Made by a program: the position numbers and the translations under genes | DNA from: a phage | Sequence record: PZ445421.1 | Reading direction: 5' to 3' (one strand) | Length of the DNA stretch: 59,835 nt | Part shown: piece after piece, positions 1 through 55,548 of the stretch | Layout of the letters: each line of letters begins with the position of its first letter | Numbering within the stretch: the first letter of the stretch is position 1 | Notes under the pieces: generated by a model | The model's input: only the letters and a program-made list of their open reading frames with translations | The model's database searches: none | What the model was told of the DNA's origin: nothing

Positions 1-1599
1 ATGGACTCAATGATTCAAACACCGTCCACTAAGGTAGTATGGAAACCACATCCAGGATCTCAAGTACTGGCACTGAGTTGTCCAGCAGATGAGATTTTAT
101 ATCATGGTACTCGTGGCCCTGGAAAGACCGATGCTCAGTTGATGCGTTTTCGTCGTTATGTTGGCATGGGGTATGGTAAACACTGGCGCGGTATCATTTT
201 TGACCGAGAATACAAAAACTTAGATGACTTAGTTGCAAAGTCACAGCGTTGGTTTCCTGAATTTAATGATGGTTGTAAATTCTTATCTTCCAAGTCAGAT
301 TATAAATGGGTGTGGCCTAGCGGCGAAGAACTAATGTTCCGTGTTGCTAAAAAGCCTAAGGATTACTGGCTGTACCACGGTCAGGAATTTCCATTTATTG
401 GATGGAACGAATTAACTAAATATCCTGATAGTGGGCTTTATGAAGCAATGAAGTCCTGTAACCGTACATCATTTGTTGCAGAAGAAAACCCGATAATTAT
501 TGACGGTGATGTGTATCGGAGAACTGGACGTCTTGTGCTTGTTCAGCCAGACCATGAATACGCAATGCAGTTCATACTGCCACCTTTGCCGTTGCAGATC
601 TTTTCTACGACTAACCCATTTGGAGTTGGACATAACTGGGTCAAGAAATATTTTATTAACTCTTGCCCTCTTGGGTCCATGAAGAAGGAAGTGACAAACG
701 TCTTCAACCCGCGTACACAGAAACGGGAAGACGTAGTTCGAACTCGCTGCCATATATTTGGTTCGTATCGAGAGAACCGCAACTTGACACCAGAATATGT
801 TGCGCAGCTTGTAAACATTGACGATCCTAACCTCCGTATGGCATGGCTCGGTGGTAGCTGGGATATTACGTCAGGTGGGATGTTCGACGACCTGTGGCGC
901 CAGAATATACATGTGGTCAAACCATTTCCAATACCTCACTCCTGGAGAATTGATAGATCATTTGACTGGGGCTCAAGTAAACCGTTCTCTGTTGGTTGGT
1001 GGGCAAGAAGTGATGGTAGCGATATCGTGTATCCAAATGGGCGTCGTGTACGAACAGTACGAGGTGACTTATTTAGGATCATGGAATGGTATGGTACTAA
1101 CGGAAAACCGAACGAAGGTTTAAGATTATTGGATTCTGAAATTGCTCGTGGTATCATCGTCAGGGAAATTGAAGCTGGTTTATACGGTCGCGTAGTTCCA
1201 GGCCCTGCTGATAACAGCATTTGGGACGTTAAGGACGGTAACAGTACCGCAGCAACAATGTCTAAGCCAATAACTATCAATGGTCGGTCTTATCCTGGTG
1301 TACAGTGGATCCGAAGTGATAAATCCCCTGGATCACGTAAAGCAGGTTGGAAGCGAATGCGGGAATATTTAGCTGCTTCAATTCCGGATCCTAAGGTTGC
1401 CGCTTTGCGTGAAAGACCTTCTATGTTTATTTTTGACAACTGTCATCATTTTATAGATCTTGTTCCAACTCTTGCTAGAGACGAAGATGATCTTGATGAT
1501 GTCGATACTGATTCTGAGGACCACATTGCTGACGAAGCTCGTTATCGCGTAGCCAACGAAGCACGTGGCGGTAGTATCGGTAAGACTGTTGGAACATAA
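1..1599 (+). CDS. terL: terminase large subunit
   Basis: 532-aa ORF with N-terminal P-loop 'GTRGPGKT', Walker-B-like 'FIGWNE' and acidic C-terminal nuclease-like region; followed 12 nt later by the portal gene; small-terminase-like ORF lies at the window 3' end. Confidence 0.85.
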   Translation: MDSMIQTPSTKVVWKPHPGSQVLALSCPADEILYHGTRGPGKTDAQLMRFRRYVGMGYGKHWRGIIFDREYKNLDDLVAKSQRWFPEFNDGCKFLSSKSDYKWVWPSGEELMFRVAKKPKDYWLYHGQEFPFIGWNELTKYPDSGLYEAMKSCNRTSFVAEENPIIIDGDVYRRTGRLVLVQPDHEYAMQFILPPLPLQIFSTTNPFGVGHNWVKKYFINSCPLGSMKKEVTNVFNPRTQKREDVVRTRCHIFGSYRENRNLTPEYVAQLVNIDDPNLRMAWLGGSWDITSGGMFDDLWRQNIHVVKPFPIPHSWRIDRSFDWGSSKPFSVGWWARSDGSDIVYPNGRRVRTVRGDLFRIMEWYGTNGKPNEGLRLLDSEIARGIIVREIEAGLYGRVVPGPADNSIWDVKDGNSTAATMSKPITINGRSYPGVQWIRSDKSPGSRKAGWKRMREYLAASIPDPKVAALRERPSMFIFDNCHHFIDLVPTLARDEDDLDDVDTDSEDHIADEARYRVANEARGGSIGKTVGT

Positions 1600-1611
1600 G
1601 GAGTTTAACAG

Positions 1612-3138
1612 ATGGCCATTTCTTCGGTTCATCCTAAATATTTACAGTTTAGTGCATTATGGTTGAAGATGCGGGACTGTTTTCTTGGAGCTGACCACAT
1701 CAAAGCTCAAGGCACTTTGTATCTTCCACCGACACCTGCTATGCGTTATGACGGTATGAAACCAGGCGAAGATGGCTATATCCGTTACAACGATTATAAA
1801 GAACGTGCAGTGTTCCCGGAGTATGTCGCTGATGCGGTAGTTAATCACAGTGGTATGCTTCATAGTAAGTCAGCTATCATTCAGTTACCTGCTGCAATGG
1901 AACCCCTTCGTCAATCTGCTACCAGCAAGCGCGAAGGTTTAGATCAGCTACTACGCCGTATAAACGAGCTACAGCTACGCGATGGTCGTCTTGGCCTTCT
2001 GTTGGAGCTGCCAGCGGGAAGTACCCGTGATACGTTGCCGTACATCGCAGTATACGAGGCGTTAAGTATACGAAACTGGGACGACGGTGAAGATGATCTT
2101 GGTTCACTTAACCTTAACCTAGTTGTTCTGGATGAGTCCAAAGAAGTATTGGACAAGACTTCACTTGATTGGACTTATAAAGTTCAATATCGAGTTCTTG
2201 TTCTTGGAAGCGCCAATGTAGACGAACCGACAGATAGCGGTTACGTGTATGGGCAGTACATGACAGAACTACTTCCTGGTGAAGATGACGAACCAGAAGA
2301 GGTGAGCTCTGACGTTGTAGTCCCTCAGTATAAAGGTACTCCGCTTGAGCAGATACCTTTCGTATTTTGTAACGCTATGGACTTAGTCCCAGAACCAGAT
2401 AAACCACCGCTACTTGCATTAGCAAACAGATGCATTTCCATTTATCATGGTGAAGCTGATTATCGACAGGCTTTGTTTATGCAGAGCCAGGATACGCTGG
2501 TTGTTCGCGGTGGTATTACGAACAGTGACGCAGTTGATGATAAAGCTCCTGTTCGTGTTGGTGCTGGTGCTCGTATTGATGTATCTCCAGACGGTGATGC
2601 TAAATACATTGGTACTAATTCACAAGGTTTACCGGAGCAACGTAAAGCACTTGAAGCTGACCATAAAGACGCTCAGACCCGTTCCGGGCATTTAACCAGT
2701 GCAGAAAGTGCTTCTCAAGAATCTGGCGATGCTCTGGAAACACGTCTTATCACTAAGACTGCTTCATTAGTTGGTATTGCTAAGACTGGTGCTGCTGCGT
2801 TAGAAAAAATCCTTCGTATTTGTGCTATATGGATGGGATTAAATCCAGACGAAGTTAAAGTTACACCTAACCTTGACTTCAGCAAAGCTAATATTGAAGG
2901 CCAGGAATTGGTGCAGGTGCAGACTGCCAAGAATCTTGGTGCTCCGTTATGTGCTGAGTCTATGCACAATTGGTTGCAGGATAAGGGAATGACCTCTTTG
3001 ACGTTTGAAGAGGAGATGAAACGGCTTGAGGAGGAGCGCAAAGAATACCCGTTCCTTTTACCTCAAGTTAAAAACGATCAGAACCAAATCCAGCAAACAA
3101 CTGGAGAACAGACGGGGAATGCAAATGCCGCTAAGTAA
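1612..3138 (+). CDS. portal protein
   Basis: 508-aa ORF directly after terL, SD 'AAGGAG' upstream; size and synteny typical of portal; no motif-level proof. Confidence 0.7.
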   Translation: MAISSVHPKYLQFSALWLKMRDCFLGADHIKAQGTLYLPPTPAMRYDGMKPGEDGYIRYNDYKERAVFPEYVADAVVNHSGMLHSKSAIIQLPAAMEPLRQSATSKREGLDQLLRRINELQLRDGRLGLLLELPAGSTRDTLPYIAVYEALSIRNWDDGEDDLGSLNLNLVVLDESKEVLDKTSLDWTYKVQYRVLVLGSANVDEPTDSGYVYGQYMTELLPGEDDEPEEVSSDVVVPQYKGTPLEQIPFVFCNAMDLVPEPDKPPLLALANRCISIYHGEADYRQALFMQSQDTLVVRGGITNSDAVDDKAPVRVGAGARIDVSPDGDAKYIGTNSQGLPEQRKALEADHKDAQTRSGHLTSAESASQESGDALETRLITKTASLVGIAKTGAAALEKILRICAIWMGLNPDEVKVTPNLDFSKANIEGQELVQVQTAKNLGAPLCAESMHNWLQDKGMTSLTFEEEMKRLEEERKEYPFLLPQVKNDQNQIQQTTGEQTGNANAAK

Positions 3139-3210
3139 AGGCGTGCAGCGTAAAGCAAAAGCCAAGAGTAAAAAATAGTTGCTTCATTCTTAATGATGTA
3201 TTAGTTTTAT

Positions 3211-3241
3211 AGCGCGGTAGAACGGTCTATCGCGCTTTTTA
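3211..3241 (+). terminator. rho-independent terminator (11-bp stem with one G.U, tetraloop, T5 run)
   Basis: AGCGCGGTAGA-acgg-TCTATCGCGCT followed by TTTTT, between portal stop and scaffold start. Confidence 0.55.
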
Positions 3242-3268
3242 GTGGAACGGTCCACAATGGAGAATTTT

Positions 3269-4147
3269 ATGAACAAATATCACATTCATCTAGCGGTAGC
3301 TTATTCCGCTGGCTTCTTCCAGTCTATGCCTCGTTTTGGTGCATTGGAACTTGAATATACTTCTGAAGATGAAATCCCGGAAAACGCGCGTGAGTATTAT
3401 TCCCAAGAAGGCGATAAGTGGATCCTCACTGGTGTAAAGGGTGGTGGCAAACAGAATATTGACAGGTTGCAATCTGCACTTGAAAAAGAACGCAACGATC
3501 ATAAAGCGGTCAAGAGTAAGCTAAGTAAGCTGAACGGACGTGATATTGACGAACTCTTGCAGCGCGACGCTGAATATGAAGAGCTTAAACTGCGTGCGGA
3601 TAAAGTTGATGATGAAAAGTTGGAGCAAATCATTAACGTACGAATCCGTAACAAGTTAACTCCGCTTGAGCGTGAACGTGACGAGCTGAAAAACAAACTT
3701 TCTACCTATGAGAAGCAAGTAGAAGAGCTGACCACAAAAGAGAAGAACCGCATCGTTAAGACCGCTCTTAGCAAGGCTGCAATGTCTGCTAAAGTGATCA
3801 CGGAAGCTATTGACGACGTGGAACTGATTGGTTCTCGTTTGTTTGAGCTCACCGAAGACGGTCAGGTTGTGACACGCGACGGTGTGGGCGTAACTCCTGG
3901 CATCACTCCAGAAATGTGGTTACAGGACATTCAAGATAAGAAACCTCACTGGTTCCCTGGAAACGTTGGCGGTGGTGCTGGTGGCTCGCGTACTCCTGGC
4001 GCTGCTGGTAAGAACCCGTGGAGTGCCGACGGTTGGAACCTTACTGAGCAGGGTAAAATTCTTCGTGAAAATCCTGAAAAAGCAGGCCGTTTGGCAGCCA
4101 TGGCTGGTGTGGACTTGAAGCGTCCAGTACGTCCAGTTAAAAAATAA
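3269..4147 (+). CDS. putative head scaffolding protein
   Basis: Track ORF 3242..4147 begins at GTG; internal ATG at 3269 has SD 'GGAG'; long charged coiled-coil-like central region and Gly-rich C-terminus, positioned between portal and major capsid genes. Confidence 0.5.
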   Translation: MNKYHIHLAVAYSAGFFQSMPRFGALELEYTSEDEIPENAREYYSQEGDKWILTGVKGGGKQNIDRLQSALEKERNDHKAVKSKLSKLNGRDIDELLQRDAEYEELKLRADKVDDEKLEQIINVRIRNKLTPLERERDELKNKLSTYEKQVEELTTKEKNRIVKTALSKAAMSAKVITEAIDDVELIGSRLFELTEDGQVVTRDGVGVTPGITPEMWLQDIQDKKPHWFPGNVGGGAGGSRTPGAAGKNPWSADGWNLTEQGKILRENPEKAGRLAAMAGVDLKRPVRPVKK

Positions 4148-4285: not shown

Positions 4286-5389
4286 ATGTCTAAAATTCTG
4301 TCAGCTCCGATGCTTAATTTACGAGCTACAAATTCAATTCTTCTGTCTGCTGTTCGTCGTGGTGCGATCACTGAACTTGCAGATGTTATCGTTCCAGAGA
4401 TCTTCGTACCATATGTGCAGAACCGCACAACTGAAAAGTCCCGACTGATTCAGTCTGGTGCTATTGAGATTTCTGAGCGTCTTAACGCTGCATTGATGGG
4501 TGAAGGTACTACCTTTAACCAGCGTTTCTTTAAAGACCTGGATCGTGACGAAGAAAACGTTTCAAGCGCAAGCGATGCAACCGATTCTACTCCTGGCGGT
4601 ATCAAATCCGGGCGTGAAATCCAGATCCGTCTGTCCCGTAACCATTCATGGGGTTCTGCGGACCTGCTGGACAGCCTGATCTCCCCTGACCCGCTGGATG
4701 CTATCATCAATCTGGTGGCAAGCTACCGTCAGAGCCGTCTGCAACGTGCATTCGTTGCAACTGTAGGCGGTGTGTTTGCTATGAACGCCGCTGCTCCGAC
4801 TGGTTCCGGTGATAAGAAGTCCACCCATGTTCAGAACGATATGACCCATGACATCTCTGGTTCATCCTTCACCGATGGTGTGACTAACTTCAACCCGGCC
4901 GGTGTTATCCTGGCTGCTGGTACTATGGGTGACTCCCTGAACGAGCTGTCTATGATGATGGTACACAGTGTGGTATACCAGCGTATGCAGCTTATGAACC
5001 TGATCGACTTCATCCCGGATGCTCGTGCTGAAGTAATGATCCCGACCTACATGGGCCGTGAAGTTATCGTTGATGATATGATGCCTCACGATGGTGGTAA
5101 GTACGAAACCTGGCTGGTTGGTCGTGGTGCATTCCAGTTAGGTGTCGGTTCACCGAAAGTTCCTGTTGAAACTGAACGTAAACCTGCATCCTACAAAGGT
5201 GGTGGTTCTGAAATCCTGTTCCACCGCTGGGAAAACATCATTCACCCTGTCGGTCACGCATGGGTTGGTACTGCTGCTGAAGGTGGTCCGGATAACGCCG
5301 CTCTGAAGACTGCTACTAACTGGGCTCGTGTATTCCCTGAGCGTAAACAGATTAAGATTGCTCGCCTGATCACTCGCGAACACGCTTAA
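4286..5389 (+). CDS. major capsid protein
   Basis: Track ORF 4154..5389 starts at TTG inside the hairpin; internal ATG 4286 has SD 'GGAGA'; 367 aa, position after scaffold, followed by strong terminator. Confidence 0.7.
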   Translation: MSKILSAPMLNLRATNSILLSAVRRGAITELADVIVPEIFVPYVQNRTTEKSRLIQSGAIEISERLNAALMGEGTTFNQRFFKDLDRDEENVSSASDATDSTPGGIKSGREIQIRLSRNHSWGSADLLDSLISPDPLDAIINLVASYRQSRLQRAFVATVGGVFAMNAAAPTGSGDKKSTHVQNDMTHDISGSSFTDGVTNFNPAGVILAAGTMGDSLNELSMMMVHSVVYQRMQLMNLIDFIPDARAEVMIPTYMGREVIVDDMMPHDGGKYETWLVGRGAFQLGVGSPKVPVETERKPASYKGGGSEILFHRWENIIHPVGHAWVGTAAEGGPDNAALKTATNWARVFPERKQIKIARLITREHA

Positions 5390-5616: not shown

Positions 5617-6288
5617 ATGATGAAAGACAAGATCATTGAAGGGCTTCGTAAACTCAACGTTGAGAATGACAATCATTGGACTGCCGATGGCCTGCCTAAA
5701 ATTGAAGCATTGAAGTTTACAGTTGGCCCGTCCGTCACGCGAGAAGATGTCAATTCTGTTGCGCCTGAGTTCACTCGTTCAAATCCTGTAATTGAGGACG
5801 TCGAACATGAAGAAAAGCATGACACTTCCTCATTGCAGGAAACCGAACAGACGGAAGTTATTGCAGATACCGACAATGCACAATATGAGTCCTTATCTAA
5901 GGCTGAAGCAGATAAGGAAACTGTTAACGGTAAATCGATTGTCACTACGCGAATAGCTTTAGAAGTCAACGTGAGCGATGCAGTTAAAGCAATACTCAAA
6001 GATATTCCAGATATTGACTTTGACACTGTTTCTGTGGAAGAGCTTAAAGAATATGAAAAAGTTCTTTCGGAACAAGTGAACGCAGACAACCAGATGTTAT
6101 CTGCAATGCACGAACTTGTTGAATCTCGTGCTAAACTGTACGCAAAAGTCAACACTGAAATTGAACGTCGTAAGCCTAAGACCGAGCTGGCTCACACGTT
6201 AGCATCTTTCCGCGATCAGATGGCACAAATCCCACATGTGGTCAATCAGCCTCGTATGGTTGTTCGTAACGGTATTCGTACTCGTTAA
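5617..6288 (+). CDS. hypothetical protein (acidic, head module)
   Basis: 223-aa ORF in the morphogenesis operon; no motif recognised. Confidence 0.5.
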   Translation: MMKDKIIEGLRKLNVENDNHWTADGLPKIEALKFTVGPSVTREDVNSVAPEFTRSNPVIEDVEHEEKHDTSSLQETEQTEVIADTDNAQYESLSKAEADKETVNGKSIVTTRIALEVNVSDAVKAILKDIPDIDFDTVSVEELKEYEKVLSEQVNADNQMLSAMHELVESRAKLYAKVNTEIERRKPKTELAHTLASFRDQMAQIPHVVNQPRMVVRNGIRTR

Positions 6289-6296
6289 GGTGACAT

Positions 6297-6626
6297 ATGG
6301 TATTTCGAACAGACAAAAAGTTCCTGTTTCATATGATGCAACGTAACAGACGTCGTCGAGATGCCACGTTGAATCCTGTAAGTGGTGTCCTGGGGTGGGT
6401 AACACCGCCCCCGTCGACAGGTGTCGTATATACCGGTTACGCCATGACGTGGCAGAATGGCCAAACACCTTACGTTGTGCAGGTCTTTAAAGATAAAAAG
6501 TTGGTCTCACAGAATCAGTTTGATTTGCAGACCTTCACAATTAACAAATCGTCCGCTGCAAGATACGATATTAAAATTATAAGTGCAGACGGTCAGATTC
6601 TTAATGGTACAATAGATATTGCGTGA
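6297..6626 (+). CDS. hypothetical protein (head module)
   Basis: 109-aa ORF, SD-like 'AAGGTGA' upstream. Confidence 0.45.
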   Translation: MVFRTDKKFLFHMMQRNRRRRDATLNPVSGVLGWVTPPPSTGVVYTGYAMTWQNGQTPYVVQVFKDKKLVSQNQFDLQTFTINKSSAARYDIKIISADGQILNGTIDIA

Positions 6627-6633
6627 GGCGCCT

Positions 6634-50722: not shown

Positions 50723-51146
50723 GCGGGTATCTCAGTGGCCGAACTTCACACTTATCGCCAACCCACTTAAAGCCCAGGATCATAACAGCGTTACCTTCCG
50801 TATCAGGACACACGTCAAAGCAACTGTTGAACCCTTTACTGTGCATATACTTGTCCAGCGGAATCACACAATCCACATCTAACAACCAGTACCCGAAGTA
50901 AATGTCAACAGTAAACATCATCCCAAGCATCGGAGCCGACCAGCACATATACATCCGCCCGTCATCCAACTTCTTGACAGCATTCGGCCGCAACATCAGG
51001 CCAGCCGCCTTCCACGCTTTGACCACATTACTTAGGCTGTCATTATGCTGTTCTAATATGTCTACCGCTTTGGCGTACATTTCTTCGTTATAACCGAACA
51101 TTTCCTGTACGTGTGCGTGCGTTATTTCAATATTACTATTCCGCAT
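50526..51146 (-). CDS. hypothetical protein (first gene of the leftward operon)
   Basis: Track ORF to 51197 (TTG); ATG 51146 with SD 'GGTGAGG'. Confidence 0.5.
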   Translation of the reverse strand: MRNSNIEITHAHVQEMFGYNEEMYAKAVDILEQHNDSLSNVVKAWKAAGLMLRPNAVKKLDDGRMYMCWSAPMLGMMFTVDIYFGYWLLDVDCVIPLDKYMHSKGFNSCFDVCPDTEGNAVMILGFKWVGDKCEVRPLRYPRGKARRAYIEDGVVRWCDVQKRRMGANHITHIKECLVRLQTNNSGNVQLQQELQELIEYIDQFGA

Positions 51147-51312
51147 AACCTCACCCTTGATAATAATAATCGACCGATTTTGAAATTCAGTTGCCAAGTT
51201 TTAATTTATGCGAAGTTTTTGCTATTTGCAATTGTGACATTTTGCGGTGTTTGTATGTGCAATGTTTTTGCTTTTGCAAAAATTACAACAGTCTGAAGGT
51301 GAGAAATTGTAC

Positions 51313-51520
51313 ATTTATAAAGATCGGTGAAAAAATGCACAATTTATAAAGACCCCGTAATACATAAAACGGCGAAGCGAAGTGTATGAAAAATAAGGGA
51401 AAATTTCGAGGGTTTGGGGGAACGTGTGAATTTATAAATTTTATAAAGGGGTCTCGTAGGGGTCGTCAGTAGACAACTCAAAAACAAAAAATCTTTATAC
51501 AATTTATATAAATACACACA
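51313..51520. repeat. AT-rich region with repeated ACAnTTTATAAAGA / TTTATAAA motifs and GGGGTC direct repeats
   Basis: TTTATAAAG at ~51314, ~51353, ~51441; GGGGTCTCGTAGGGGTCGTC at 51448-51467; (CA)n-like run near 51513. Confidence 0.5.
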
Positions 51521-51559
51521 TACACACATTTTTTACCTTATTTTTCATGCACTTACCTC

Positions 51560-52120
51560 CTTTCATTTCGTATATTAAGCGTTAATACATGAGCAATATA
51601 ACATATATTTGTTGCGCAACGACTGTGTGTTTTCTAACCAATCGAAAGATTGCTTTATATACGTCCGCGCGTCTAACACAAAAGAAAAGTAGATTGCAAG
51701 CGATTTTTGCTGATGTAACTCTCGAAGTGAAAGCGATTTGCGAGGTTGAAATTTTGTAGCCCGAAAACGATTCTATTTTATGGTATAAATGTCGGATTTT
51801 TCGGTGAAAGCTGGCTTTTCGGTGAGGTTGGGTGGCTGGGATCGGGGTAACGGGTAGCCCATAAAGCGAAAATAGCCGCGAAAACGGGGCACGTAGCGCG
51901 ATTAAATGGTTGGATCGGTGTAAGGGTGGCGGTGAGGGGCGAAAATGCCGCAAAATCGCGTACAGGGAAGCAGGGAGTGGATGGCTGTAAGGGCGTATAA
52001 GGCGACTAAATTGGAGTCTATGGTAATGTATGGAAGAAGGATTCAGGTTCTTAGAGCGCGAATGGTGGAGCTATGGGTGAGGAATATGTGGTCAGCAGGG
52101 TAACGCGGGAGGTGGTGCGG
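51560..52120. other. ORF-poor, strongly purine/G-rich (plus strand) region with many short direct repeats
   Basis: Repeats TTTTCGGTGA x2, GCGAAAAT x2, TGTAAGGG x2, GGTAACG x2; the minus strand is C/T-rich and G-poor. Confidence 0.45.
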
Positions 52121-52122
52121 GT

Positions 52123-52159
52123 ACAAAAACGAAAACGCCCCGTTGGACTTCAACAGGGC
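52123..52159 (-). terminator. rho-independent terminator (minus strand)
   Basis: Minus strand CGCCCUGUUG-aaguc-CAACGGGGCG followed by UUUUCGUUUUUGU. Confidence 0.65.
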
Positions 52160-52184
52160 GCGGATTCTAAAATGGTTTTAGAAG

Positions 52185-52433
52185 TTATTTACAAGTTAAT
52201 AGTACCGCCCAGGTATTATCTGGAAGCGTACCAATTCCACGGATTTTCAACTGGAGCGACTGGTGCTGCATGTTGTAGTTGTCTAGTAACTCCTGGGCCG
52301 CGGCAGCGGCGTTCGCTTCACTGTTGAGGCTGTAGTCGTTACTCGTTACCGCGCACATACCGAGACCAACTGCTTTGAAGCGCAAACCTTTGGATTGAGT
52401 CGGTGCGAGTGCTTTGACATGGATAGCTTGCAT
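52185..52433 (-). CDS. small protein (82 aa), paralog of 52963..53211
   Basis: Shared N-terminus 'M(A)QAI..K.LAPT.S.G.R.KA' and shared C-terminal pattern with the second copy. Confidence 0.55.
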   Translation of the reverse strand: MQAIHVKALAPTQSKGLRFKAVGLGMCAVTSNDYSLNSEANAAAAAQELLDNYNMQHQSLQLKIRGIGTLPDNTWAVLLTCK

Positions 52434-52462
52434 ATTATATATCTCCGTTACAATTTGAAAGG

Positions 52463-52720
52463 TTAGCAGTTTTTTAACAGGTTGATGAAGCCCGCCAGCG
52501 TGGACGCTGTTGCAACCAGGCGGCCTATAGTATGCAGTTCCGCGTGAACTTTACCGTCGTCAAATACAGTTAAATAAACGTTAAGACCATTGCAACGGAC
52601 GCGATATTTGCGCGCGTTATTACCGAAAGTTTCTAGCTCTGCGGTGATAGTCGCGAGATTAGCTATACGTTTTCCGATAATACGGCGAGTGATAGTGGAC
52701 TGGTTTAATACTGTAGACAT
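52463..52720 (-). CDS. hypothetical protein (85 aa)
   Basis: First gene downstream of palindromic promoter module 1. Confidence 0.5.
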   Translation of the reverse strand: MSTVLNQSTITRRIIGKRIANLATITAELETFGNNARKYRVRCNGLNVYLTVFDDGKVHAELHTIGRLVATASTLAGFINLLKNC

Positions 52721-52751
52721 AATAATTTCCTCTGTTAACTATGAGAAGTGC

Positions 52752-52780
52752 ATATTATTGCCCACTGTTACTATGGGCAA
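52752..52780 (-). promoter_or_regulatory. promoter with embedded palindromic operator (TTGCCCA-N9-TGGGCAA), copy 1
   Basis: Minus strand reads TTGCCC-N17-TAATAT; the palindrome overlaps the -35/spacer; ~30 nt upstream of ATG 52720. Confidence 0.5.
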
Positions 52781-52788
52781 TGTATATG

Positions 52789-52953
52789 TCACTCAGCGGA
52801 AACATATTCTAACGCTTCTGATAGTGTAGCGAAGTGACCATCACTCACCAGATTAATAGCGTATTCAAGTTGATCGCGGGTCAGGTTGCGAAACTTGTTA
52901 CGGATGTGATAGCAACGACCGCGATAAATAAGCTGGAAATAGTTGCGTTCCAT
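52789..52953 (-). CDS. small ORF (54 aa), below track cutoff
   Basis: ATG 52953 with SD 'GAGGGA' overlapping the stop of the upstream paralog; encodes MERNYFQLIYRGRCYHIRNKFRNL... Confidence 0.3.
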   Translation of the reverse strand: MERNYFQLIYRGRCYHIRNKFRNLTRDQLEYAINLVSDGHFATLSEALEYVSAE

Positions 52954-52962
52954 AATTATCCC

Positions 52963-53211
52963 TCATGCAGTGATAATGAAGGAGTAACCGCTTTGATCCG
53001 GGAGCTCACCACCAGCGAGGATCTTAAACTCGGCGTCCATTTTAGCGTTTAACTTTTTGACCAGCTCTTCCACTGCGGCGCGATGGTTGCCGTATGTGTC
53101 CAACTGGTAACTCCAGGCAATAGTCACGGAACTATTCCAGCACGTTGCTTTTACACGATCGCCACGGGACATAGTTGGAGCCAGGAATTTAGTGATAATT
53201 GCTTGTGCCAT
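52963..53211 (-). CDS. small protein (82 aa), paralog of 52185..52433
   Basis: See paralog above. Confidence 0.55.
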   Translation of the reverse strand: MAQAIITKFLAPTMSRGDRVKATCWNSSVTIAWSYQLDTYGNHRAAVEELVKKLNAKMDAEFKILAGGELPDQSGYSFIITA

Positions 53212-53216
53212 GATAA

Positions 53217-53402
53217 TTACTCCGGTAAAATTACAGTGACGTTAATATTTGCAATGCGAGCGCACTCGCGGAAACCTTTTACATAAGCATCCATTTCGTC
53301 ATAGGATGCGAAAGTTGCGTCCGGGACTGGTCCGTTGTTAATATTCACGCAATATTCATGTTCGTCCAGGTCAACCCAACAATTCAGAACGATAGTTTCC
53401 AT
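53217..53402 (-). CDS. hypothetical protein (61 aa)
   Basis: Track ORF 53217..53435; ATG 53402 with SD 'GGAGGG'. Confidence 0.45.
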   Translation of the reverse strand: METIVLNCWVDLDEHEYCVNINNGPVPDATFASYDEMDAYVKGFRECARIANINVTVILPE

Positions 53403-53403
53403 A

Positions 53404-53478
53404 TTATTTGCCCTCCGTATAGTACAGACCTGCAACTATTGGAGCTCCGAATACCAAGAACGCTAATAAGTAGAACAT
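53404..53478 (-). CDS. hydrophobic micro-peptide (24 aa), below track cutoff
   Basis: ATG 53478 with SD 'AAGGGGG'; encodes MFYLLAFLVFGAPIVAGLYYTEGK; sits exactly between two genes. Confidence 0.3.
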   Translation of the reverse strand: MFYLLAFLVFGAPIVAGLYYTEGK

Positions 53479-53480
53479 AA

Positions 53481-53960
53481 TTAGTTGCCCCCTTTATTGT
53501 TGAGCCCGTTGAATTTACGCCATGCGTAGAATTCAATCGTTGCATTATTAATATTCCAACCATTAGCTTTCGCAAGGTCACGGACGTTACCAATAGTTGG
53601 CACACTATCAGGTAACATATTATCCAGGGCATTCCAAACGTCTGCGCATTTACCTTTAATCGGGCGACGGACCCCGTTGCGCGTTTCGCTGCGCGTTTTA
53701 CCTTTGGCGGGAGCGACCGGAGCTTGTTGTGTGGTCACTTCCACGACAGTCGCTTTATCAGCTTCAACCAGATCGTTAGCCGCCTTATTAACCGCGCTTT
53801 CGCTGTACCAGTAGCGGCCACCGTCTTCGTGCGGTTCCTGGTGAATAAAGCTGTTAGCTGTCGCTGTGTCTACGTCCAGAACCTTTTTCAAGGCACGGCG
53901 AGCGTTAGACATGTTGGTGAAAAAGCGAGCATCTTTTGCTACGCGAGTGATAGTAACCAT
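53481..53960 (-). CDS. hypothetical protein (159 aa)
   Basis: Track ORF to 53975; ATG 53960 is served by the 'GGAG' that follows the first ATG. Confidence 0.5.
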   Translation of the reverse strand: MVTITRVAKDARFFTNMSNARRALKKVLDVDTATANSFIHQEPHEDGGRYWYSESAVNKAANDLVEADKATVVEVTTQQAPVAPAKGKTRSETRNGVRRPIKGKCADVWNALDNMLPDSVPTIGNVRDLAKANGWNINNATIEFYAWRKFNGLNNKGGN

Positions 53961-53993
53961 TGTGAATATCTCCATGCTGTTCTAGCGGATTGC

Positions 53994-54022
53994 ATATTTT
54001 TGCCCACTGCGACAATGGGCAA
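53994..54022 (-). promoter_or_regulatory. promoter with embedded palindromic operator (TTGCCCA-N9-TGGGCAA), copy 2
   Basis: Minus strand TTGCCC-N17-AAATAT; near-identical ~45-bp module to copy 1, including the flanking GTATATGTCA. Confidence 0.5.
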
Positions 54023-54034
54023 AGTATATGTCAA

Positions 54035-54208
54035 TCAACTATCTTGTATATTGTCCAGTAGATGCGCGAGCAGATCCAGCTGGCTCTTGGTTTTGAGAGC
54101 TTCTTCTCCGGTTTGCTCTTCGTACTCGTTGTAGAGCGTAACATACAACCATTGAAACAGGTCTTCAGCAATAAGGCACTGAGAGTCGGTTAGTTGGATG
54201 GTTTTCAT
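54035..54208 (-). CDS. small acidic ORF (57 aa), below track cutoff
   Basis: ATG 54208 with SD 'AAGGGGA'; its 3' end overlaps promoter module 2. Confidence 0.35.
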   Translation of the reverse strand: MKTIQLTDSQCLIAEDLFQWLYVTLYNEYEEQTGEEALKTKSQLDLLAHLLDNIQDS

Positions 54209-54390
54209 GGTGTTCCCCTTCGGGTGAGGCGGGCGCGGAACCCGTGTCCCGCTTAAAAACCCCCTTTACCCTACGCAGTTATAATAGGACAACTGGGTAT
54301 CAGATGCAACTATTATCTGCATTATTTTAGAACTTTTTTAGTTGTGTTTCGTAATAATAACATCCGGTACTATGCGGTAGATGGTGTGCC

Positions 54391-54470
54391 GGAAATACCA
54401 GGTAGCGCGAGCGTGTCGAAAATACCAGGTAACAGCACGCGCCGAAAATACCAGGTAGCACATACATAGA
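54391..54470. repeat. iteron array: three direct repeats with 26-bp period (core GAAA(A)TACCAGGTARC)
   Basis: Units begin at 54392, 54418 and 54444; read directly. Confidence 0.7.
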
Positions 54471-54506
54471 CAGCACATAGTGGGCAGGTGGATAGTAACA
54501 GATGCA

Positions 54507-54531
54507 ACTATACTGGACGGTACAGTATAGT
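54507..54531. repeat. palindrome ACTATACTG-N7-CAGTATAGT
   Basis: Read directly; the 13-mer CAGATGCAACTAT also occurs twice (54301 and 54499). Confidence 0.5.
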
Positions 54532-54809
54532 CGTGTAATAGATAGCATACTAATCAAATAAAAATAATAACGCGTGTAACAATAAACAACGTTATAGTAG
54601 AGCGAGTGACAGTCACATGACGTAACAATCACCTCACTGACGATCACGGGACGTTATAGTAACGCCGCGGGGCGGCTCTTAGATCTCTGCCAAGGATTCT
54701 TCGTTTGTAGATTATCTCGTCACTAGACACTTTATATCCTCACCTCACCTGCCCTATATTGTTCGTATAAAGTTAATTCCGTATGTAAATACTCGAGAGG
54801 AGATCTATT

Positions 54810-55097
54810 ATGTTCGTTCTGGCTTTCAATAGTGCAATATGGCTAGGTATCAACTGGATCCTTGCAATTATATTAGGTCTTGTGATCTGGTATGTACCGT
54901 TTATGCGTTACGCTGTTATCATTTCGCTTGTATATTTAGTTGTTAAACATTTCTTCGTATGGTGCGTATGCAATCCACAAGCTGCAAACATCAAACGTAA
55001 GAAAGCGAACTTCTTTAGTGTGCTTATTTTAGGTTCACTGATTGTGTACGCATGGTTGCTTGGTGCGCAGAACTTAGGTTGGTTCACGTTGCCTTAA
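54810..55097 (+). CDS. small multi-pass membrane protein (95 aa)
   Basis: Three hydrophobic segments; strong SD 'GAGAGGAG'; first gene of the rightward block after the iteron region. Confidence 0.55.
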   Translation: MFVLAFNSAIWLGINWILAIILGLVIWYVPFMRYAVIISLVYLVVKHFFVWCVCNPQAANIKRKKANFFSVLILGSLIVYAWLLGAQNLGWFTLP

Positions 55098-55182
55098 TGT
55101 GGTCACTAATTGTTGCGGCCGGCTATGTTAATCAACTTGCGTATCCTGTTATAGTTATTCCGTTAACGTTAAAGGGGTTTAT

Positions 55183-55548
55183 ATGAACGAGAATATAGTT
55201 AAAGCCTGGTCTATCTTACGACCACAGCTGAAAGACGATCGTGTCGCTTTTGTTTTATGTCCGAGCAATGAGTATCGCCGGAAGCTCGAAGAAGTGTTGC
55301 GCGAAGATCCTGAGTTCGTTCGCTGTGTACAACTGTCGCGCGAGTCATCTGTGGTGCAGTTTGATCGTTTCCATCTTCGTTTGGTTTCTCATCGCAGAGA
55401 CTCGTATGAAGACACTGTTATTCGTACGAGTGGCTTCCATTGTGATATTGCCATTCTTGACTGCGAATTAAGTATTGAGCAGAAACAAGACTTATATAAT
55501 CTTGCTCGTGAACGTCATGGTGAACTGTTAATTGTGGAAGTGCAATAA
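55183..55548 (+). CDS. hypothetical protein
   Basis: 121-aa ORF. Confidence 0.5.
   Translation: MNENIVKAWSILRPQLKDDRVAFVLCPSNEYRRKLEEVLREDPEFVRCVQLSRESSVVQFDRFHLRLVSHRRDSYEDTVIRTSGFHCDIAILDCELSIEQKQDLYNLARERHGELLIVEVQ

Follow-up and report, generated by a model that had tools for sequence, protein, structure and literature searches.

Two homologous proteins of the orphan family PHROG 3199 in the pac-adjoining gene block of Escherichia phage FritzHoffmann

We analyzed a 59,835-nucleotide stretch of phage DNA (sequence record PZ445421.1; "the window", to whose coordinates all positions refer unless stated otherwise), in which an earlier note had described two 82-residue proteins as a paralogous pair in consecutive early operons. 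Both minus-strand open reading frames (ORFs) were found where that note had placed them, and are called protein A (52185..52433) and protein B (52963..53211) below. A and B proved to be homologous members of PHROG 3199, a large orphan family without a solved relative by sequence or fold. Comparison with the rest of the family speaks against a duplication retained within this genome, and the setting of the genes tentatively suggests, with a probability of about 0.4, that A and B are immediate-early proteins with an accessory role, each binding some conserved macromolecule of the host in the course of host takeover or counter-defence. By megablast, positions 51400-54400 were 100% identical to Escherichia phage FritzHoffmann (Bas20, MZ501068; Queuovirinae, Nonagvirus) and 89-96% identical to other Nonagvirus phages; a window coordinate equals the MZ501068 record coordinate minus 519. 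In GenBank, A is bas20_0070 and B is bas20_0073, both labelled "hypothetical protein."

Homology of A and B within PHROG 3199

BLASTP alignment of A with B (a single comparison) showed 27 identical residues out of 73 (37%), with E=1e-12. Both proteins matched the N-terminal 80 positions of the profile phrog_3199, which is catalogued as "unknown function," with residues 1-80/81 covered (E=3.8e-25 for A and 1.3e-32 for B), and a hidden Markov model (HMM) of the family detected exactly two copies in the window, A at 88 bits and B at 131 bits. AlphaFold2 predicted strands at residues 2-10, 19-23, and 28-32, a helix at 39-58, and strands at 63-69 and 75-81 for B (predicted local distance difference test score 88.1). 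The prediction for A (82.9) was strands at 3-9, 18-23, and 26-31, a helix at 38-56, and strands at 62-69 and 75-81. The common predicted fold is a single domain of ~80 residues with the order beta-beta-beta-alpha-beta-beta. The alignment, the shared PHROG, and the same predicted fold order exclude chance similarity. The N-terminal MQAI.TK.LAPT..G.R.KA and C-terminal G.LPD patterns, which had first drawn attention to the pair, are conserved motifs of the family itself.

The median pairwise ratio of nonsynonymous to synonymous divergence (dN/dS) between orthologues was 0.19 for A (12 genomes) and 0.19 for B (8 genomes), calculated from 63 and 27 pairs, respectively, indicating that both are true protein-coding genes under purifying selection. 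A GGAG Shine-Dalgarno sequence lies 8-9 nt upstream of the ATG in both genes. Thus, the idea that the likeness is accidental between short ORFs, or that the ORFs are not genes, can draw on their small size and nothing else, and is already refuted by the alignment, the common PHROG, the predicted fold, the dN/dS values, and the Shine-Dalgarno sites. The GenBank version of bas20_0070 begins 9 nt further upstream (52434-52442), at an ATA codon. We favour the ATG at 52433 as the true start, giving the 82-residue form, because the family alignment begins with Met-Gln and GGAG stands 9 nt before this ATG. In phage ChristophMerian (Bas19), a genuine ATG is found at the upstream start (MNNMQAI...).

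A profile built from A, B, and ten B orthologues was searched against 1.84 billion representatives and retrieved 1,999 proteins at E<=1e-3 and 108 at E<=1e-10, mostly 75-110 residues long, indicating a family of ~2,000 clusters at 50% identity. The family consensus reads MQAIxTKYLGPTNxRGSRIKA..GSxTVSWD..L....NHxxAAxAL..KL.W....GGxLPDGSGYAFV. A tblastn search with B returned 253 phage records from many unrelated groups, among them Chi-like phages, Seuratvirus, rV5-like myoviruses, several Pseudomonas phage groups, T7-like Klebsiella and Pseudomonas phages, and Rhizobium and Providencia phages. Chi gp65 (179 aa) is a long form of the family, and CAjan gp69 is the Seuratvirus member. A scan of a genome collection with a narrow pattern gave 3 loci. 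One of these, a contig of Novosphingobium lindaniclasticum LE124, carries a 117-residue member (contig positions 4995-5348) between a terminase-like ORF and a tyrosine-integrase-like ORF, as read from their translations and not from a profile search; the family therefore appears to occur also in integrated or temperate elements of alphaproteobacteria.

No member of the family bears a functional name; all are called "hypothetical" across 15 billion source records, and nothing on its function turned up in the literature searched by PHROG identifier and accession number or for Bas20 and the early genes of Nonagvirus. Pfam gave no match for A, B, or their neighbours (E<=0.1 for TetR_N and helix-turn-helix models), for 89 relatives, or for 13 long or fused members, among them forms extended at the C-terminus, and NCBIfam gave no meaningful match for A, B, the neighbours, or the 89 relatives. 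In these libraries and in PADLOC, no described defence or anti-defence family matched the family members searched; for PADLOC, which represents host defence-system proteins and not phage inhibitors, these were A, B, and two relatives. None of the libraries is dedicated to anti-defence proteins, and this negative is therefore incomplete. Sequence and profile searches of PDB yielded chance matches (E>=0.014), Foldseek against PDB yielded nothing at E<=1e-3, and a fold search of BFVD returned only uncharacterised family members, with TM values up to 0.95. The HicB N-terminal domain and TTHA1756 (UPF0150), which have a partial RNase H-like fold, resemble the prediction at the level of topology only, at 3-7% identity. 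A HicB-type antitoxin was considered and rejected, as there was no Pfam HicB match, nothing significant by Foldseek, and no HicA-like partner nearby.

It is uncommon to carry two copies, as FritzHoffmann does; a survey of 80 IMG/VR loci turned up a single further case with two copies within +/-5 kb. A natural protein of 152 residues (P0067) contains two tandem copies of the domain, and the locus L089 contains two separate family genes at its positions 4995-5231 and 6275-6625, which hints that the domain may act in pairs. A survey of neighbouring genes found no universal partner among 90 family loci; an opposite-strand terminase was upstream in 29 of them, which tells only of nearness to a strand switch. 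In CAjan, the family gene (gp69) is the second after the divergent region, and in Chi (gp65) it is the third. The homologue in the T7-like Pseudomonas phage G11 is upstream of the RNA polymerase gene, and in metagenomic loci the gene comes just after a strand switch. Across these unrelated phages, the family gene repeatedly stands close to where an early transcription unit begins. An apparent enrichment near IMG/VR contig ends was discarded as too weak for use (by hand tally, 10 of 33 contigs of at least 25 kb had the gene within 3.3 kb of an end, against ~17% expected).

Origin of the pair and divergence of A

The earlier note had interpreted the pair as a duplication retained within the genome, and this interpretation was not borne out. 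When B was used as the query, family members from unrelated metagenomic phages scored 60-75 bits, while A scored 30.7 bits and ranked 252nd of 271. Neighbour-joining trees of 7 A-type, 7 B-type, and 186 other members recovered the B clade in 90 and the A clade in 52 of 100 bootstraps, and a clade of A plus B in none; the synonymous divergence (dS) between A and B is saturated. The nearest relatives of A (P0064, P0127, and P0068) carry the A signature EANAA.AAQ, GTLP, and W.VL. One of these, P0127, belongs to a 60.7-kb metagenomic phage and occupies the same syntenic place, as the last of a small-gene block that is followed by a ~1-kb gap and, further on, by a primase; no B-type gene was present among the called genes of its 12-kb locus. 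The Klebsiella-type relatives Kpn2-P2, K9PH25C2, and Ec1-ASingh also have A alone within the fetched loci. An A orthologue was present in all 12 relatives examined, each time as the final gene before a terminator. B was detected by the family HMM in 8 of the 12 loci, is additionally annotated in HdSG1, and travels on a cassette that can be inserted or deleted, as described below. Because A-type genes occur alone and in synteny in the Klebsiella-type relatives and in the phage of P0127, A appears to be the ancestral, fixed resident of its position in the block, and B a later addition in the E. coli/Salmonella Nonagvirus lineage. The pair is thus better read, from these comparisons, as two subfamily members brought together, or as a very ancient split.

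Residue conservation was calculated for 186 family members outside Nonagvirus and, for the A-type, for 34 sequences. The most conserved positions are I5 (96%), T7 (95%), T13 (96%), R19 (99%), A22 (91%), N42 (84%), H43 (91%), A46 (97%), G67 (91%), and G74 (90%), all of which B keeps; the glycine-rich loops are 85-91% conserved. A keeps T13, R19, N42, and A46. The A-type has Ala at H43 in 100% of the sequences, Val at T7 in 85%, Trp at G74 in 62%, Cys at S28 in 100%, and Asn at W33 in 97%. Within the family-invariant set T7, T13, R19, N42-H43, and A46, B retains every residue and A has V7 and A43, which makes A a member of a divergent subfamily. The suggestion that the two proteins had diversified was upheld to this extent: the changes of the A lineage (H43A, T7V, S28C, W33N, and Gly to Trp) fall at functionally suggestive positions that are 65-95% conserved among the 186 members. 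PHROG 3199 is a catalogued group without function, structure, or literature, and its division between consensus-like NH proteins and A-type NA proteins, as two subfamilies, is drawn in the present analysis; what is new here is the members and this split within a catalogued, uncharacterised family.

By connectivity and not by coordinates, the hairpin loop GPTNxRGSR, the N-H helix cap, and the LPDxG loop should share one end of the predicted sheet. This brings in an alternative in which the family consists of small-ligand binders or mini-enzymes, and a pocket binds or cleaves a nucleotide-type molecule such as a defence second messenger or alarmone. The A-type, with His43 replaced by Ala, would then be a non-catalytic or differently specific variant. 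The conservation of T13, R19, N42, H43, and the glycine-rich loops given above favours such a pocket, as does the predicted placement of invariant Thr, Arg, Asn-His, and Asp residues in loops at one end of the domain; invariant Thr, Arg, and Asn-His residues would be unusual for a protein interface. The tandem protein P0067 and the two copies of L089 allow for a dimeric unit, and known sponges work as dimers; the early genome position fits as well. However, the clustering of the loops is argued from topology instead of coordinates, and 80 residues are few for an enzyme. We consider this the strongest of the alternatives, and a rather unlikely one.

Terminal redundancy, promoter-like modules, and exchangeable genes of the block

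In the record of phage HdSG1, positions 1-3363 and 60233-63595 are 100% identical, forming an exact 3363-bp direct terminal repeat. Position 1 of this repeat aligns at 51440 of the window and its final base at 54678, mostly at 93-95% identity except for 54023-54215, where the two phages have different genes. The equivalent of the repeat (51440..54678) holds the whole leftward small-gene block with A, B, and both promoter-like modules. Just inside its right boundary are two copies of the pac core motif SRYCRCGGGRCG on the plus strand (54642-54653 and 54663-54674), against 0.07 matches expected in the window; the motif was taken from published work on phage 9g (PMC5567051). In the mapping by Kulikov et al., the physical left end of 9g fell in this intergenic region; they regarded the adjoining genes as the early region and deduced that a terminal repeat is present (PMC4276943). 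In their numbering, B is gp3 (9g_00036, the orthologue of B) and A is gp5. Tsai et al. confirmed the pac cut of 9g and gave a terminal redundancy of ~3.0-3.2 kb (PMC5567051). They describe the 9g redundancy as headful-generated (PMC5567051), and the HdSG1 record shows exact repeats.

Taken together, the alignment over 51440-54678, the pac motifs, and the end mapping of 9g indicate a terminal-repeat location of the type known for T5 pre-early and SPO1 genes. The block of FritzHoffmann would thus lie in the terminal redundancy adjoining pac, in agreement with the HdSG1 repeat. The "early" location claimed for the pair therefore stood, in that the block is in the region called early in the 9g literature, adjoining the pac end and inside the terminal redundancy. 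From this location it would follow that the block is first-entering DNA and is present in two copies per genome.

Several other features were observed around the repeat boundaries. The left boundary at 51440 falls within an ORF-poor gap of ~1 kb (51198-52184) between bas20_0069 and A, whose length and position are conserved in all Nonagvirus relatives and in the distant 60.7-kb metagenomic phage (L109, 6270-7313). An Rfam scan of 50900-55000 found no credible RNA family. Inverted-repeat arms of 24 nt (51380-51403 and 51531-51554; 92% complementary) flank 51440 and may mark the repeat boundary or serve as a terminase or termination signal. On the pac-proximal side, three 23-nt direct repeats (GAAAATACCAGGTA core, spacing 26-27 nt) occupy 54385-54460 and may be protein-binding sites, either iterons or regulator sites. 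They lie inside the ORF bas20_0078 (54327-54647), whose translation does not look like protein and whose call is therefore probably spurious; HdSG1 has no annotation in this pac-proximal region, and for 9g the region is described as non-translated.

The location next to pac, together with the charge of the proteins, leads to a further alternative, in which the basic beta-hairpin and the exposed sheet bind RNA, single-stranded DNA, or the entering DNA end. A nucleic-acid-binding helper of this kind would act in genome protection, circularisation via the terminal redundancy, or replication start. The N-terminal 24 residues have a median charge of +4 against -2 for the remainder, the genes are in the terminal redundancy, some of the ORFs that recur near the family gene in metagenomic loci look DnaN-like or methyltransferase-like by sequence alone, and weak fold resemblances are also present. 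Nevertheless, the overall pI is only about 8 (A 8.7, B 7.9, family median 8.1), B is naturally dispensable, and T7-like phages, which replicate and package their DNA in other ways, have family members in their early regions too; we rate this alternative slightly below the ligand pocket. Acidic DNA mimicry of the Ocr/ArdA type, with a pI of about 4, was ruled out because the overall pI is about 8 and the charge near neutral; there was also no Ocr or ArdA Pfam match.

Two promoter-like modules were confirmed in the block as 47-nt direct repeats that are 87% identical. Read on the minus strand, each has TTGCCC, a 17-nt spacer, and the hexamer TAATAT or AAATAT, and overlaps the palindrome TTGCCCA-N9-TGGGCAA. 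Module 1 (53991..54037, minus strand) is upstream of the 164-residue gene that heads the unit containing B. Module 2 (52749..52795, minus strand), with TAATAT, is upstream of an 85-residue gene and A. The palindrome spans the -35 element and the spacer, and its two sites are the only ones in the window, against 0.2 expected. The modules are conserved at the same two places in nine E. coli/Salmonella Nonagvirus phages (eight relatives and FritzHoffmann) and are absent from the three Klebsiella-type relatives. We infer that they act as sigma-70-like promoters; module 2 matches 8 of 12 consensus positions, which is below the threshold of the promoter scan. The claim that each protein follows a gene downstream of a module applied to A, the second gene after module 2, and did not apply to B, the third or fourth after module 1, since a 164-residue gene, an annotated 24-residue ORF, and a 61/72-residue gene intervene. 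Immediately after A is an intrinsic terminator (52161..52135, minus strand; 11-bp stem, 7 GC pairs, and a T-run) that is also annotated in HdSG1. No other minus-strand terminator was predicted in 51000-55500, and none between the two units. Because the sole minus-strand terminator directly follows A, a single leftward unit with internal promoters fits better than the consecutive operons proposed earlier.

These palindromes bear on an alternative in which the proteins are transcription regulators of an early/late switch, acting on the palindromic operators of both modules. The 9g GenBank note and the corresponding paper label gp3 as "similar to the TetR family" (PMC4276943), and palindromes over the -35 and spacer of both modules need some binding protein. 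However, there was no TetR_N or helix-turn-helix Pfam match at E<=0.1, and five strands with one helix are predicted, compared with the all-helical TetR; B and TetR regulators are alike in small size only. Furthermore, the proteins and the palindromes do not go together: both palindromes are present in ChristophMerian, which has no B, and neither is present in the Klebsiella-type relatives, which have A. The family also spans many phage groups with other promoter types. TetR-family identity of B was therefore rejected on domain, fold, and co-occurrence, and a regulator role in general seems very improbable.

Whole-genome blastn comparison of FritzHoffmann with ChristophMerian showed a 413-bp gap at 52799..53211, corresponding to a cassette of B and the 54-residue gene bas20_0072 (52789..52953, minus strand; phrog_18706, E=1e-42), which starts 9 nt after the stop codon of B. 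The ChristophMerian junction at this site is clean (...CACTCAGCG|ATAATTACTCC...), and the family HMM found only the A-type and no B-type copy in its whole genome. Every annotated relative that carries B has an annotated 165-nt gene immediately downstream of it, and relatives without B have no such annotation. In total, Bas19 is without nine Bas20 segments; the aligned blocks are mostly 91-97% identical, with two divergent blocks at 75-80%. Between module 2 and A, the 85-residue gene bas20_0071 (52463..52720, minus strand; phrog_13865) is a further variable cassette that is absent in 9g, JenP1, and SE1, where A comes directly after module 2. The 57-residue gene bas20_0077 (54023-54215) replaces an unrelated 101-residue gene of 9g, HdSG1, and JenP1, with yet other genes at this position in ChristophMerian, and appears to mark another cassette swap within the terminal-repeat block. 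The leftward block as a whole thus looks like a mosaic of small exchangeable genes, typical of accessory regions. The first gene after module 1, bas20_0076 (53481-53975; 164 residues), has its C-terminal ~70 residues in common with five PHROGs, all of unknown function; its weak PADLOC match to mad1 (E=0.004) is most likely noise. JenP1 carries an inserted homing endonuclease gene immediately behind A.

Candidate role and comparison with known early regions

We propose that A and B are accessory immediate-early proteins because of their position, the small single domain, natural dispensability, the cassette behaviour, and the spread over alpha- and gamma-proteobacterial phages. The block adjoining pac in the terminal redundancy would be the first DNA open to host RNA polymerase, and would be read from the sigma-70-like promoters up to the terminator right after A. 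A is the fixed resident across Nonagvirus-like phages, and B an optional extra on the 413-bp cassette with the 54-residue gene. Each protein would act stoichiometrically, not as an enzyme, on a host macromolecule conserved across Proteobacteria. The putative binding surface would be the conserved polar patch of the basic hairpin loop GPT-N-x-R-G-x-R, the N-H helix cap, and the LPD-x-G loop. A may have a changed target or specificity, because His43, Thr7, and other invariant residues are replaced and yet purifying selection persists. The early timing is taken from the published genome analysis and the position of the block, and the binding mode and any target are proposed from the predicted surface. 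A host-takeover or anti-defence role, as the earlier note suggested, fits this context and is plausible.

Several points weigh against this proposal. No homology or experiment ties any family member to a function, and the early expression of the block is itself an inference. In addition, Thr13, Arg19, and Asn42-His43 are nearly invariant (84-99% among the 186 members), a pattern that is commoner in ligand or active sites than where two proteins bind each other. A lead towards an anti-EcoKI role of B also failed. Among Queuovirinae in the BASEL paper, only ChristophMerian was sensitive to EcoKI (PMC8594841), and this phage, which is without B, was the sole sensitive Nonagvirus. The lead is confounded because ChristophMerian has two EcoKI sites (AAC-N6-GTGC; at 6629 and 19715 of its genome) and FritzHoffmann has one (window 6108), and because eight other segments differ. 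The extra site is a possible simple cause of the sensitivity of Bas19.

The pre-early genes of T5 and the host-takeover module of SPO1 sit in terminal repeats. Like these, the FritzHoffmann block, placed in the terminal redundancy, is made up of small genes that have promoters of their own and for the most part no known function. However, there is no sequence relationship, and the Nonagvirus repeat is ~3.3 kb with 7-8 genes; the likeness is one of analogy and not of homology. The block also resembles Aca-controlled anti-CRISPR and anti-defence operons, for example those of archaeal viruses (PMC11065993), in that early promoters overlapping inverted repeats are followed by small genes in exchangeable cassettes. 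It differs from them in that Pfam found no Aca-like helix-turn-helix protein in the block, and there was no Acr homology.

In a bolder form, PHROG 3199 would be a new class of counter-defence proteins, immediate-early and very widely distributed, whose fold lacks a solved representative and whose invariant Thr/Arg/Asn-His pocket binds or destroys a nucleotide-type immune signal or another small conserved ligand. Nonagvirus phages would then carry two specificities, a fixed His-less A-type and a B-type that is swapped on a cassette with its 54-residue partner. We regard this form as quite improbable.

The pair is in itself ordinary, as small genes of unknown function abound in phage early regions. 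Its worth lies in a very large family, found in 253 sequenced phages, with sharply conserved polar residues and yet no Pfam model, structure, or function. The phages Bas20, with A and B, and Bas19, with A only after the clean 413-bp loss, both in the public BASEL collection, are natural controls that, together with the contrast of A-type and B-type at the invariant His, make a function screen cheap. The proteins are testable candidates for host-takeover or anti-defence screens, and if the conserved pocket does bind an immune signal, the pair would be of greater interest.

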